Source: a virus
Lineage: Duplodnaviria > Heunggongvirae > Uroviricota > Caudoviricetes
DNA length: 47,972 nt
IMG/VR virus record: IMGVR_UViG_2531839374_000006
Reading direction: 5' to 3' (one strand)
Below are positions 41,601 to 47,600 of the stretch, piece by piece. Within the stretch, counting starts at the first letter, position 1, and every line of letters begins with the position of its first letter. Made by a program: the position numbers.

Positions 41601-44600
41601 GGCGCGCGTCGCTGGCTGGAAAGAAACTCAGGTGAGTGATATGGATTTCGACACAATCATGGAAAAGGCTTACGAAGAATACTTCGAAGGCCTTGCCGAA
41701 GGCGAAGAAGCTCTCAGCTTCAGCGAATTTAAACAGGCGCTTTCCAGTTCGGCAAAATCTAACGGCTGATAAGCGAAACAGCACGCGAGGAATCAGTATG
41801 CAGAAACGAGAACCCGTCATCATCGCGCCAGACTATACCGATGATGAACTTTATGAGTGGATTTTGGCGGCATCAGTTTCATTGCTGGCTGATGTCCGCC
41901 CTTTTTAAAGTGAATTTTGTGATGCGGTGAATGCGGCTCAGCGCACGCGGAACAGTTAAAACAGTAAGGAAAATCCCTTATTCCGGCGTTAATTATTAAC
42001 TGGTTAACGTCACCTGGAGGCACCAGGCACCGCATCAACAAAGTTCACTTCGGTGATGAAAGGTAAGAGAAAATGTTGAATGTAGCTATTGAAAACCAGA
42101 ACGGGTGGAATTATAGTGCATCTGCACCTCATAAAACGGGGGCCGGGCGTGGAAACCCGAACGTTACTCGAGCGCATAGCCGCGCTGAAGCGGTTTTTTT
42201 ATGCGTAATGCACAGCTCCATTCAAATTATGGTGGGATGTGCAGGGCAGTCGCAAGACTGGCCGGGTTCTCGAGTGACCGGTATTTCCACCCCTGTACGT
42301 CTCACCACCCTTATGGTCGTGGAAAACCTCGGTGGTGAGTTAATTAACTTATCACTCGAGGATGCCATCATGGCTACTATCCCTGCCCTTTCTCACCCTT
42401 GTGTAACCGTAGAAAACGGTCGCGCTGTCACTACGTCTGTTGCGGTTGCAGAGTTCTTCCACAAACGACACGACAATGTGTTACGTGCCATCGCAAATAT
42501 TGAATGCTCAGATAAATTTACTGCCCTCAATTTTGAGGCGAGCGAATACACCGACTCAACCGGGCGCAAACTCCCAATGTACCAAATCACCAAAAACGGC
42601 TTCGTTTTCCTGGTGATGGGCTTCACTGGCAAAAAAGCCGCCGCATTCAAGGAAGCCTACATTGCTGAGTTCGACCGCATGGAGGCCGAACTGCGCCAGA
42701 ATAACACCCCACCTGCTGACAAGATGATTCCGGGTGATGGTCGCACTCTGGTTGTTCACTTCGACAAATTCGGCAATGTCGAATTCACCGAAACCGTTCC
42801 TGATGGCGCACTGGTCTGTACCCTGGAGACTTTCCGGTTTTATCTGGAAAAACAGGGATGGACTCTTGTTAACCGGGGCGCAATTAAAAACATGACCGTA
42901 GAGCAGTTGCTTTCCTTAAAATAAAAATGGAGCTATGGATATGAACCCCATGCTTGATTATTGTTTTACACCTGCCCTCAGGCAGACCATCAGTCATACC
43001 GGGATTAAAAAATGGCTGTGGAGAATCAGAAAAATTCTCCAGCAAAAAGGTGACCCGGATTTAATACAATGTGATTACCATCTCTGCAATAAACAGTTTT
43101 TACCTGAAAAAGCTTTTACTGGCGAGCTTATTTATATGCATGGAAACATGATTGCCAGAAAGAAACGAAAATATTGCAGTGCAGCTTGTGCCGAAAAAGA
43201 CAAGATGGCACACGAACTTTAATTAACTGAATATTCGAATCTGAATTTATGCCAGCAATGGCAGGGATTCACTCAACCTTAAAAAAGGAAACAGCAATGA
43301 GCATTATTGAATGTGAAATTGAACTTGATGTTATTAACGATTCTCTCGCCGAATTTAAATGTGGGAATACATTACATAGTTTCATTCAGATTTCCCAAAA
43401 AGAAAACGTCACGGTAATTATTGATGACGGTTACGTTCTGGGAACATTTGATTGTTGTGTATGTGCCATTAAAGGAATTGCATTACTCACAGCTCGCATT
43501 GAAGAGGCTGACAAGAAATACGGTATCAGTTATCAACGACTGAAAGAACTCTCTCATATCGCATCATCAGTTCGTTTCTTTTATGCAATCTGAATATGAG
43601 TTGAGGTTAAAAACAATGAGCACCGATAAACAAGTTTACCCACTGTATTACGAAGCAAAAAATGACAAAGTAAGAAAACGCCTCGGTATTAAAGGCGGTT
43701 TTTACTGGGCTGAAGCGAAAAAATTATCCATTGCCATCTCCCGTGGTGCTGTTGCGATTGACGATGCTGGCTACGATGAAGATGACTTTAAAAAACCTGT
43801 TCGCGTCAATTTGCCCGTTGTTGATGACCTCCCACCAGAAGGCGTGTTTGATACGGAATTCTGCAACCGTTACGAAAAAGGCGGGGAAGATGGCATCACA
43901 ATGGTATTTATCGCATCTTCTCCCTCTGTTCAGGACAAACCAGCCAGCACTGACAATACCAACGTCAACGGCGAAGACATGACAGAAATTGAGGAGAACA
44001 TGCTCCTGCCAGTTTCCGGTCAGGAACTGCCCATTCGCTGGCTTGCGCAACACGGCAGCGAAAAACCGGTAACGCACGTTTCACGCGACGAACTCCAGGC
44101 ATTACACATTGCTCGGGATGAAGAACTACCGGCTGTTACTGCTCTGGCTGTTTCGCATAAAACCAGTCTGCTCGACCCGCTGGAGATTCGCGACCTCCAC
44201 AAACTCGTGCGTGATACTGACAAAGTTTTCCCTAATCCTGGCAATTCAAATCTGGGACTGATGACTGCTTTTTTCGAAGCATATCTGGATGCCAACTACA
44301 CCGATCGCGGTCTGCTGACAAAAGAGTGGATGAAAGGAAATCGTGTTTCGCGTATCACTCGCACGGCTTCCGGTGCTAATGCTGGCGGCGGGAACCTCAC
44401 CGATCGCGGCGAAGGTTTCGTTCACGATCTGACGTCACTGGCGCGCGACGTAGCCACTGGCGTACTGGCTCGTTCAATGGACGTGGACATTTATAACCTT
44501 CATCCGGCACACGCTAAACGTGTCGAGGAAATTATCGCTGAAAATAAACCGCCCTTTTCTGTTTTCCGCGACAAATTCATCACCATGCCTGGCGGGATGG

Positions 44601-47600
44601 ATTATTCCCGCGCCATCGTGGTTGCGTCAGTGAAAGAAGCACCGATTGGTATCGAGGTCATCCCCGCGCACGTCACTGAATATCTGAACAAGGTACTGAC
44701 TGAAACCGATCATGCCAACCCTGATCCGGAAATCGTGGATATTGCCTGCGGTCGCTCCTCTGCCCCGATGCCGCAACGTGTAACAGAAGAAGGAAAACAG
44801 GATGATGAAGAAAAACCGCAGCCATCTGGCGCAATGGTAGATGAACAGGCAACGGCTGAAACAGTGGAACCGGATGCAACTGAACATCATCAGGACACGC
44901 AGCCGCTGGATGCTCAGTCACAGGTAAATGCTGTTGATGCGAAATATCAGAAACTGCGGACAGAACTCCATGAAGCCCGGAAAAACATTCCGCCCAAAAA
45001 TCCTGTCGATGCAGACAAATTACTGGCTGCCTCTCGCGGAGAATTTGTTGAAGGGATTAGCGACCCGAATGATTCGAAATGGATTCCCGGTCATCATATC
45101 TCCTCAAATGAAGTCAAAAAAACGGAAAATGAAGTGCGACAGACTGAAGATAAACAGCACCAGAACAGCGAACCGGAGGAGGGAACACCCTGCAATCAGA
45201 CTGGCGAGGATAACTGCCCTGACTGTGGCGCGGTGATGGGAGACGCAACTTATCAGGAAACTTTTGACGAAAAAAACCAGATGAAGCACAGGAAGAAGAG
45301 CCGAAGAAAACGGAAAAAGCTGATGATTTGTTACCGGAGAACGCTGGCAGCGATCAGCATAATGATAGCAATAATGAAACTGGCGAAGATGAACTCAACT
45401 GGAAAAAACAGGTGTTGATTGCGGCGGTTTACGGTTTATGTGCGAATCCTGCGTGCATAGCCTATGCGCCTGCAATCCCTGACATCGCAATGATGATTGC
45501 CAACAAGCTTGAAAATTTTGGAGTGACCAGTGATGAGCGCTTACCCGATTTTTGATCGTATTGAAGAAATGGCATGGGCTCGTCACTACCAGCAGATCGT
45601 TCGTGAAGAAAAAGAAACGGAACTGGCGGACGACCTGGAAAAAGGTCTGCCTCAGCACCTGTTTGAATCGCTCTGCATCGACCATTTGCAACGCCACGGT
45701 GCCAATAAACAGGCAATCAGCCACGCATTTGATGATGATGTTGAGTTTCAGGAGCGCATGGCAGAACACATCCGGTACATGGCTGAAACCATTGCCCACC
45801 ACCAGGTTGATATTGATTTGGAGGACTAAAATCTATGGCGCTTTTTCAACGAGCAATAAACACACAGGCCTATCTAAAAGCAGGAATTATGGGGTTTGCT
45901 GGCGACGGCAAAACCTACACAGCAAGCGAACTGGCTATTGGTCTGGTAATGCTTATGCGGCAACGGGGAATTGAAGCTGGTAACCGCCCGGTAATGTTTC
46001 TGGACACAGAAACAGGCTCTGACTGGGTTAAACCCCGCTTTGATGCGGAAAATATCGAATTATTTACGGCAAAAACCCGCTCGTTTGTTGATCTGCTTGA
46101 AGCCATTAATGAAGCGGAAAGCAGCGGTTCCGTAATGATCATCGACTCCATCAGTCACTTCTGGACCGGATTATGCGACGAGTATGCCAGACGCCGAAAC
46201 CGTAAACGAGGACTGGAATTTTCAGACTGGGCGTGGCTCAAACAGGAGTGGCGACGCTTTACCGATCGATTTGTTAACAGTCAGGCGCACATTATTATGT
46301 GCGGGCGTGCAGGATATGAGTATGACTTTTTCGAAGGTGATGATGGCAAACGCCAGTTGGCAAAAACCGGTATAAAAATGAAAGCAGAAACAGAAACCGG
46401 TTATGAACCCTCCATCCTGATCCAGATGGAGAAGCAAATGAACATAGAAACCGGTCAGGTGTGGCGCACCGCCAGAATACTAAAAGATCGCTCCACCCGT
46501 ATTGATGGACAGGTATTTTCAAACCCAACATTTAAAAACTTTCTTCCTCATATCGAGTTTCTTAACCTGGGAGGTGAACACCTCGGCATCGATACCTCAC
46601 GGGATAACAGTGAATTATTTGCCAACGACGGTACACCGACATGGCTAAAAGAAAAGCGTGCAAAAGAAATCGCACTTGATGAAATTATCGAGTTGCTCAA
46701 CAAGCACCATGGGGGCACCAGTAACGACGCCAAACGCGCAAAAGCTGATTTGCTGGAAAAAACATTCACCTCCCGCTCATGGGAAAGAATCAAAGGTATG
46801 GACTGGCCGACAATCAAAGCTGGTCGTAATGCACTATGGATTGAACTGGAAGGCGTTGAATATGCATTCCCGGATCCACAAACACAAAACGAAACGCAAC
46901 AAGCAGGATACGATGAGAATATTCCGGTGTAAAACCAAGTGCATTTTGGACACGGTTTTTGAAAATATTAATGGAGGTGTTCATGTATAAAATTACAGCC
47001 ACTATTGAAAAGGAAGGTGGATCTCCTACCAGCTGGACAAGATACTCAAAGACAAAACTAACGAAATCAGAATGCGAAAAAATGCTCTCAGGGGAAAAAG
47101 AAGCAGGCGTTTCCAGAGAGCAGAAAGTAAAACTGATAAATTTTAATTGCGAGAAACTTCAGTCCTCGTGAATTTCATTATATCCAGATTAGAACTTCAT
47201 AGCTGATTATTAAAAATCAACCACACCCGCCAGTATTCTGTATATTTACTGGCGGTCATATCGTGAGAGGTATGGCAATGAATCTTGTGACACTCAAAAC
47301 GTGGGGAAAACTCAGATATCCGGATAACCCACCATCAATATCAACGCTGAGACGATGGGCAAGGAATGGAAACATTTATCCTGCACCTGAACTACACGGG
47401 AGGAGTTACAGGGTGGTTCCGGAGGCTTTCTATATCAACCCAAATAAGGTTGATACCGATATAACACACCATCAGCCTAATGGGCGACAAGGGAGAGACA
47501 GTCCGTTAATGGAGAAGTTAAAACATGCAGCGGAAAAAATACGATCCCAATTTGCCTAGAAACTTAACATATCGAAGGAGAGACAAAGCATATTACTGGC

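Follow-up and report, generated by a model that had tools for sequence, protein, structure and literature searches.

The stretch of DNA analysed here (the window) is the 47,972-nucleotide (nt) IMG/VR record IMGVR_UViG_2531839374_000006 (Caudoviricetes), and all coordinates given below are on the scale of this window. We investigated the genes at 43616-46932, in a region whose identification as the early-left recombination (Rec) slot of a lambdoid Shigella/E. coli prophage is supported. The early-left genes are arranged in the order repressor-like helix-turn-helix (HTH) protein, DUF1391, ydfB, Rha/Ash, YdaE, an open reading frame (ORF) of 114 amino acids (aa), recE-N, gam, ATPase, DUF1187 and excisionase; the integrase and then the yebY/copD attachment site follow, as seen in L001, another locus with the same cassette. 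Three plus-strand ORFs, which an earlier note on this DNA had described, were found as stated there:

43616..45418, plus strand: recE-N, 'RecE-2'-like and frameshifted; 600 aa from the ATG of the homologues, 611 aa from an ATG at 43583
45533..45829, plus strand: gam; 98 aa (the length of GamS), 99 aa from a GTG at 45530
45835..46932, plus strand: AAA_24 ATPase gene; intact ORF of 365 aa

The acidic, Q/E/D-rich composition reported for these products is also borne out by the data: residues 401-554 of the large protein have an isoelectric point (pI) of 4.5 and a D+E+Q content of 28.6%, and the small protein has a pI of 4.7. The statement that exo, bet, gam and recET are all missing from the locus was wrong for gam and for a part of recE, because the 99-aa protein is Gam and the large ORF encodes the N-terminal part of RecE.

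On the strength of its family matches, the product of 43616-45418 is almost certainly the part of RecE that lies N-terminal to the nuclease. It matches the Pfam family Exonuc_VIII (PF06630) with an E-value of 1.5e-36, phrog_607 with 2.5e-233 (profile positions 1-517 of 883) and the NCBIfam model of exodeoxyribonuclease VIII (PRK09709) at positions 1-568 of 877; since the ORF lacks the C-terminal third, it reaches 1035 bits against this last model, short of the cutoff of 1269. It also shares 88.6% identity with residues 1-560 of a 1028-aa RecE whose gene occupies the same site in the chromosome of E. coli C25 (locus L003). The protein, which had been taken to be unrecognised, devoid of known motifs and possibly of some unrelated early function, is therefore a known RecE fragment. 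A structural, tail or novel protein is ruled out by the Exonuc_VIII, phrog_607 and NCBIfam matches.

The other role that had been proposed for the large protein, that of a nuclease or annealase partner, is not plausible either. The full RecE of L003 matches the nuclease structure 3H4R at residues 878-1009 in a sequence search of the PDB, and the same search returned no match, 3H4R included, for the large ORF. The PD-(D/E)XK nuclease domain of RecE is encoded in neither downstream frame of the window, and a 99.8%-identical copy of the gene is annotated by the Prokaryotic Genome Annotation Pipeline (PGAP) as a pseudogene without its C-terminus. Residues 564-866 make up the nuclease in the RecE of Rac; for the N-terminal part, a boost to linear-linear recombination is the only known function (PMC11611040). 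The large ORF is thus a RecE part of unknown role that ends where the nuclease domain starts, and therefore it cannot be the nuclease. Nor does recT adjoin recE-N in the window, where gam and the ATPase gene come next; recT is present in the sister locus L003. Relatives of RecE without the nuclease are common; in E. coli R1 (locus L002), gam-bet-exo comes after a version of 665 aa. 'RecE-2' proteins without the nuclease domain and with unknown role have been mentioned by Zheng et al. 2025 (PMC12315714). These share the missing nuclease with the large ORF; however, they are described as only distant relatives of Rac RecE, whereas the large ORF is a close relative of the N-terminal region of Rac RecE and differs from it by a short alternative C-terminal tail overlapping gam.

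In the window this tail is out of frame, as two further features of the gene illustrate:

45270..45276, plus strand: poly-A tract (A7), the site of a -1 frameshift in recE-N; A8 in the intact 646-aa copies
45277..45555, plus strand: authentic C-terminal remainder of recE-N in the wrong frame, overlapping the start of gam by 23 nt

The large ORF of the window consists of 554 authentic residues and 46 C-terminal residues with a pI of 11.9, the latter being out of frame because the poly-A tract is one base shorter (A7 instead of A8). The tract is A7 in L032 and L036 too, A8 in L001, L033-L035, L074 and L082, and A9 in L004. The four A8 copies that are readable from the start codon contain the 646-aa ORF, A7 results in 600 aa and A9 in 556 aa, and copies with different disruptions give 474, 539+94 and 568 aa. 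In the prophage of strain FDAARGOS_943, which is 99.8% identical, the tract is A8 and the 646-aa ORF runs without interruption and overlaps gam by 23 nt, and the addition of one A to the window in silico restores an ORF of this length. Within the remainder, a 75-aa ORF (45328-45555) is 70.5% identical to residues 588-665 of the 665-aa homologue of L002, whose stop codon likewise overlaps gam by 23 nt. From these comparisons recE-N of the window appears to be inactivated or shortened by the loss of a single base in the poly-A tract. The variation between A7, A8 and A9 could be due to homopolymer sequencing errors, ongoing decay by mutation, or slippage-prone expression.

One might argue that the whole module is, in this genome, a decaying and non-functional remnant, whatever the ATPase family does elsewhere. 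The frameshift of recE-N and the different disruptions of its other copies speak for such decay, as do the insertion sequences (IS) IS600 and IS1 in the lysis and tail genes of the FDAARGOS_943 prophage; additionally, one E. coli copy of the ATPase gene is interrupted by IS1 and some copies are truncated. However, the gam and ATPase ORFs of the window are intact, the IS600 of FDAARGOS_943 is absent from the window, and the homopolymer difference could be a sequencing error. We consider decay a possibility to be kept in mind, although clearly less probable than its opposite.

The product of 45533-45829 can be assigned with near certainty, judging from its sequence, to the lambda-type Gam proteins of the RecBCD inhibitor family. 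It matches Pfam Gam with 8.1e-56 (positions 1-97 of 98), phrog_259 and, over its full length (residues 1-97), the solved lambda GamS in chains 5MBV and 2UUZ with an E-value of 2.5e-50. The small protein is acidic, as had been noticed, but it is no longer an unplaced one.

The ATPase belongs to phrog_1366 (1.1e-79) and matches Pfam AAA_24 (PF13479) with an E-value of 7.5e-14 and 52.5 bits, against a cutoff of 27. Its match to phrog_124, 'Sak4-like ssDNA annealing protein' (ssDNA, single-stranded DNA), is weaker at 1e-8, and the validated Sak4 of HK620 matches that profile less well (1.9e-5). Sequence searches of the PDB up to an E-value of 10 returned no match for the ATPase, for the profile of its family or for HK620 Sak4. 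The conservation of its parts was derived from an alignment of 40 homologues, and their structure from a confident AlphaFold model with a predicted local distance difference test (pLDDT) score of 84.8:

45892..45915, plus strand: Walker A, GFAGDGKT, residues 20-27; G20, F21, A22, G23, G25, K26 and T27 invariant, D24 nearly so
45997..46017, plus strand: FLDTETG, residues 55-61; F55, D57, T58, E59, T60 and G61 invariant; follows the strand formed by residues 53-57
46135..46149, plus strand: Walker B strand MIIDS, residues 101-105; D104 and S105 invariant; strand at 100-104 in the model
46375..46413, plus strand: conserved loop KMKAETETGYEPS, residues 181-193; predicted to be disordered
46639..46854, plus strand: conserved C-terminal four-helix domain, residues 269-340; not present in short Sak4 proteins
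46855..46929, plus strand: disordered acidic C-terminal tail ending in ...YDENIPV; pLDDT below 50 for residues 351-365

The P-loop, the Walker A and B motifs and the FLDTETG motif, all of which the earlier note had pointed out, are therefore present and invariant in the homologues, and the Walker B strand is followed by the equally invariant H108, F109 and W110. We take FLDTETG to correspond to FIDAEHA of RecA (E96) and YIDTEGTF of Rad51, where the catalytic glutamate sits, and E59 is a candidate for this residue. In the loop of residues 181-193, K181, M182, A184, E185, E187, T188, G189, Y190, E191, P192 and S193 are invariant, K183 is nearly so and T186 varies; the pLDDT of residues 183-189 falls below 50 within an otherwise confident core. 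By analogy, this loop is a candidate ssDNA-binding loop similar to L2 of RecA.

The modeled structure consists of a RecA-type core (approximately residues 1-245) with the loop at 181-193, the four-helix domain and the acidic disordered tail. The comparison of this model with known folds gave values of 13.6 for FlaH, 13.4 for RecA, 13.1 for Rad51, 13.1 for XRCC3, 12.8 for KaiC, 12.7 for UvsX and 9.9 for RadB, and of 12.4 for a staphylococcal phage Sak4 (8RC5; alignment over 181 of 219 residues). The predicted fold places the ATPase in the RecA superfamily, with a fold like that of RecA, Rad51 and RadB. The extra C-terminal domain (269-340) gave no informative fold match. Among the viral models closest to the ATPase are some of proteins annotated as RecA-like recombinases.

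The RecA-type fold alone does not separate recombinases from ATPases of the KaiC, FlaH or DnaB type, and the ATPase could be a DNA motor or a replication accessory protein (a helicase, loader or translocase) which merely shares this core. However, its gene lies beside gam in the early-left operon and not in the early-right replication operon, where genes for an O-like HTH protein and a DnaB-type helicase are already in place. The ATPase contains no Pfam DnaB N-terminal, DnaB_C or primase domain, its match to phrog_19 is marginal (E 0.023), and its gene swaps precisely with bet-exo rather than with replication genes, as described below. We therefore regard a role as a motor or in replication as unlikely.

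Genomic evidence on the function of the ATPase comes from three prophages at a shared attachment site, between which nothing but the Rec cassette differs:

E. coli C25 (L003): recE (full)-recT-ralR
E. coli R1 (L002): recE-N-gam-bet-exo-ralR
window and L001: recE-N-gam-ATPase

Two plus-strand genes follow this cassette in the window:

46959..47171, plus strand: DUF1187 gene (Pfam DUF1187, 7.4e-37); the first gene past the swapped cassette and its right-hand breakpoint
47263..47559, plus strand: excisionase gene (Pfam Exc, 8e-14; phrog_629)

The homology between the window and L002 extends to 45831, two bases past the stop codon of gam, and resumes at 46960, at the start of DUF1187. These breakpoints are sharp, and therefore the ATPase gene alone stands in for bet-exo-ralR. 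In comparison with L003, the segment 45389-46959 (the tail of recE-N, gam and the ATPase gene) replaces the nuclease domain of recE together with recT and ralR.

The neighbourhoods of the ATPase family were compared in 99 loci, which form 33 groups at 90% identity. In the enteric groups, including Cronobacter phage phiES15, kil-gam lies directly upstream of the ATPase gene. In Achromobacter-type and other betaproteobacterial groups, ssb, which encodes the protein (SSB) that binds single-stranded DNA, lies directly downstream, often with overlapping stop and start codons, and in a few groups the neighbours are NinB/Orf or SbcC-like. Within 5 kb of the ATPase gene, none of the 99 loci was found to carry Bet, RecT, lambda Exo or a Sak4 of the HK620 type, and the BLAST clustering of neighbours in the 33 groups revealed no universally conserved partner gene; two 119-aa genes located directly upstream of the ATPase gene in two loci are unrelated to each other. 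In Firmicutes phages, sak4 is known to be followed by ssb and preceded by a gam-like gene, in some cases with sbcC as well (PMC8093625), and the neighbour pattern of the ATPase family is the same as this published one.

A separate observation was made in two distant viral contigs whose ATPase is approximately 40% identical to that of the window. In both of them a protein of approximately 445 aa is encoded directly downstream of the ATPase gene (L100, 7137-8471; L101, 7154-8482). AAA_23 and the SbcC-like phrog_77 were matched by two of the neighbour proteins scanned, and judging by size these are probably the downstream proteins of L100 and L101. It is possible that this protein is a nuclease partner which has no counterpart in the window.

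The distribution of the ATPase family bears on a further alternative, in which the ATPase is a moron, that is, a gene for defence, anti-defence or superinfection exclusion, inserted in a variable slot near int. The family comprises more than 2,000 homologues, each representing a cluster at 90% identity; the 120 matches listed, from Enterobacteriaceae, Pseudomonas, Achromobacter, Roseateles, Aquabacterium and other taxa, share 60-99% identity with the ATPase and mostly have lengths of approximately 355-380 aa. A scan of 50,697 phage records revealed a single orthologue, that of phiES15, which is inducible. The gene is rare in E. coli, where it was found in 10 of 5,426 complete genomes at 23 places, with up to 4 per genome and an identity of at least 99.9% among all copies; the cassette is thus common to several prophages residing in the same strains. 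This rarity would suit a moron, and so would the int-proximal part of early-left operons, a known site of accessory genes; the sister cassettes also carry ralR ('endodeoxyribonuclease toxin' according to PGAP), and some distant relatives of the ATPase are labelled 'DarB-like antirestriction protein'. On the other hand, PADLOC returned no match for the ATPase, and the family retains 60-88% identity from enterics (Shigella) to Betaproteobacteria (Achromobacter, Roseateles) among the matches listed, always in the same position of the operon. The precise swap with bet-exo and the translational coupling to ssb in several lineages also count against a moron, and the whole pattern suits a core DNA-transaction gene better than a defence gene under rapid evolution. 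A moron is consequently an improbable explanation of this gene.

The tail ends of the family were compared in 110 homologues. An acidic residue followed by [IVLM]-P occurs within the last 30 residues of 32 of them, compared with 3.2 in shuffled tails. The sequence ends with Ala-Ala in 43 (1.7 expected from the composition of the tails) and with [IVLM]-P-x in 25; the ATPase of the window ends with ...DENIPV, and some tails of the family carry FDDDIPY. We presume that the [IVLM]-P-x ends resemble the C-terminal tip of SSB (DDDIPF) and that the Ala-Ala ends resemble the ssrA-like end recognized by ClpX.

Among the closest known systems is the Rec module of HK620, whose Sak4 (HkaL) anneals ssDNA in an ATP-dependent reaction stimulated by SSB (PMC5928155). 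AAA_24 and phrog_124 are matched by HK620 Sak4 as well as by the ATPase of the window, and the two proteins share a RecA-type core that contains the Walker A and B motifs. Their genes both lie in an early-left Rec module beside an anti-RecBCD gene, ssb follows directly in a part of each family, and neither module contains a dedicated exonuclease. The differences are in size (226 aa in HK620, 365 aa in the window, where the helical domain and the acidic tail are additional), in PHROG assignment (2872 and 1366, respectively) and in partners: the HK620 module is composed of Abc2, Sak4 and SSB, whereas the partner in the window is Gam, no ssb adjoins the ATPase gene there, and none is annotated in the related prophage L012 of FDAARGOS_943. 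The lambda Red module of L002 has the operon, the attachment site, recE-N and gam in common with the window (the DNA being 88% identical as far as the stop codon of gam), as well as DUF1187, xis and int; however, its bet (Rad52-type annealase), exo (5'-3' exonuclease) and ralR are replaced in the window by the single ATPase gene. P22, with Abc2 and Erf, has the same functional make-up of an anti-RecBCD protein and an annealase without phage nuclease or SSB, and is the 'P22' of class C (PMC12315714). None of the proteins is homologous, as Gam takes the place of Abc2 and a RecA-fold ATPase that of the Rad52-fold Erf.

By analogy with these systems, we are inclined to read the module, with somewhat better than even confidence, as Gam plus a Sak4-like annealase without a nuclease, in which the ATPase would be the recombinase of the prophage. 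An annealing activity is what we infer from its fold, family and position; that SSB is used, and what the C-terminal domain and RecE-N do, we infer as well. The prediction that the ATPase is Sak4-like holds as far as AAA_24 (7.5e-14), phrog_124 (1e-8) and the RecA-type fold are concerned, and no assignment to a non-recombination family was found. Several observations weigh against our interpretation. The operational rule for Sak4 describes proteins that consist of the core only and have fewer than 290 residues (Lopes et al. 2010, PMC2896510); with 365 aa and the extra domain at 269-340 the ATPase does not fit this rule. Its comparison with HK620 Sak4 gave a BLASTP E-value of 0.11 and an hhalign probability of 0.5%, although the alignments used were shallow (effective number of sequences, Neff, approximately 2), and remote homology is therefore still compatible with these values. 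PHROGs lists phrog_1366 as a family of unknown function, and the NCBIfam and PADLOC scans returned no match. Pfam SSB was detected within two genes of the ATPase gene in only 4 of the 31 group representatives scanned, and no ssb is annotated in L012, which is collinear with the window over the Rec region only; the window itself was not scanned for ssb. Finally, the IS insertions in the nearly identical prophage of another strain indicate that the window copy may be unselected; nonetheless, an intact ATPase ORF of at least 99.9% identity is present in each of the 10 E. coli genomes in which the gene occurs. We therefore class the ATPase as a RecA-core ATPase of a long, Sak4-like form, which stands outside the characterised Sak4 family as a variant, because it exceeds 290 aa, has the extra domain and shows no significant similarity to HK620 Sak4.

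If the ATPase is an annealase, the module could work as follows. After induction, Gam would block the DNA-end entry site of the host RecBCD and thereby protect the linear ends of the phage DNA. The ATPase would then bind ATP and ssDNA and anneal complementary strands as HK620 Sak4 does, with the loop of residues 181-193 as a candidate ssDNA-binding element. SSB would probably help in this reaction: since no phage ssb is annotated in L012, the partner in the window prophage would be the host SSB, and in the betaproteobacterial relatives it would be a phage SSB. The extra C-terminal helical domain and the acidic tail may serve as partner-binding elements. Annealing would supply the recombination for circularisation and the formation of concatemers, and the module would be of the functional type 'anti-RecBCD plus annealase, no nuclease'.

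The remaining observations concern the surroundings of the module. Just upstream of recE-N, the 114-aa ORF (43249-43593, plus strand) is named 'DNA breaking-rejoining protein' by PGAP; it has no Pfam match, its sole match is phrog_2434 (function unknown), and the name looks to be without domain support. At 42073-42924 (plus strand) a 283-aa protein has an N-terminal part of the Ash family (Pfam Phage_ASH, residues 14-109) and a regulatory domain of the Rha type (residues 120-204). On the scale of the whole window, the comparison with L012 (NZ_CP065615.1, 826276-874249), which belongs to the closest complete genome, reveals a mosaic: most of the length is collinear, at 97-99%, and the segments at approximately 4168-4621, 7510-8837 and 33230-36849 are non-homologous. 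The IS600 of L012 interrupts the lysozyme gene and is absent from the window (junction near 28552-28555). L012 also carries the gene of ipaH3, a type III secretion system effector, at the tail-fibre end, which points to a background of Shigella or enteroinvasive E. coli. The minus-strand tRNA cluster of the window (29558-29868) encodes Gly-TCC, Thr-TGT, Arg-TCT and a tRNA with the anticodon CAT (Met according to ARAGORN, Ile according to PGAP at a related locus); the tRNAs of L012 are Ile, Arg, Thr and Val, and the cluster thus differs between strains.

Two of the three genes that had seemed to be unknowns are thus ordinary ones, a RecE fragment and Gam, and what is left over is a strongly conserved, widespread and uncharacterised family of ATPases. 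The swap with bet-exo and the links to gam and ssb make the ATPase a concrete candidate for an additional type of RecA-fold annealase. A bolder proposal, which we think is rather unlikely to be right, is that phrog_1366 is a distinct class of recombinases, in which a RecA-core annealase would recruit host proteins, or compete with them, through its C-terminal domain and its tail, which ends with an SSB-tip-like (D/E)-(D/E/N)-(I/V/L/M)-P-x motif or with Ala-Ala, so that a phage exonuclease and SSB become dispensable. The nuclease-less RecE-N could, for its part, be a general scaffold for whichever annealase is encoded downstream, be it RecT, Bet or the ATPase. Surveys that look for Bet, Erf, RecT and short Sak4 alone could score phages like phiES15 as having no annealase. 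Should the ATPase prove to work with neither a cognate SSB nor a cognate exonuclease, it could become a compact tool for recombineering, and its module would extend the range of types among the Rec modules of lambdoid phages.

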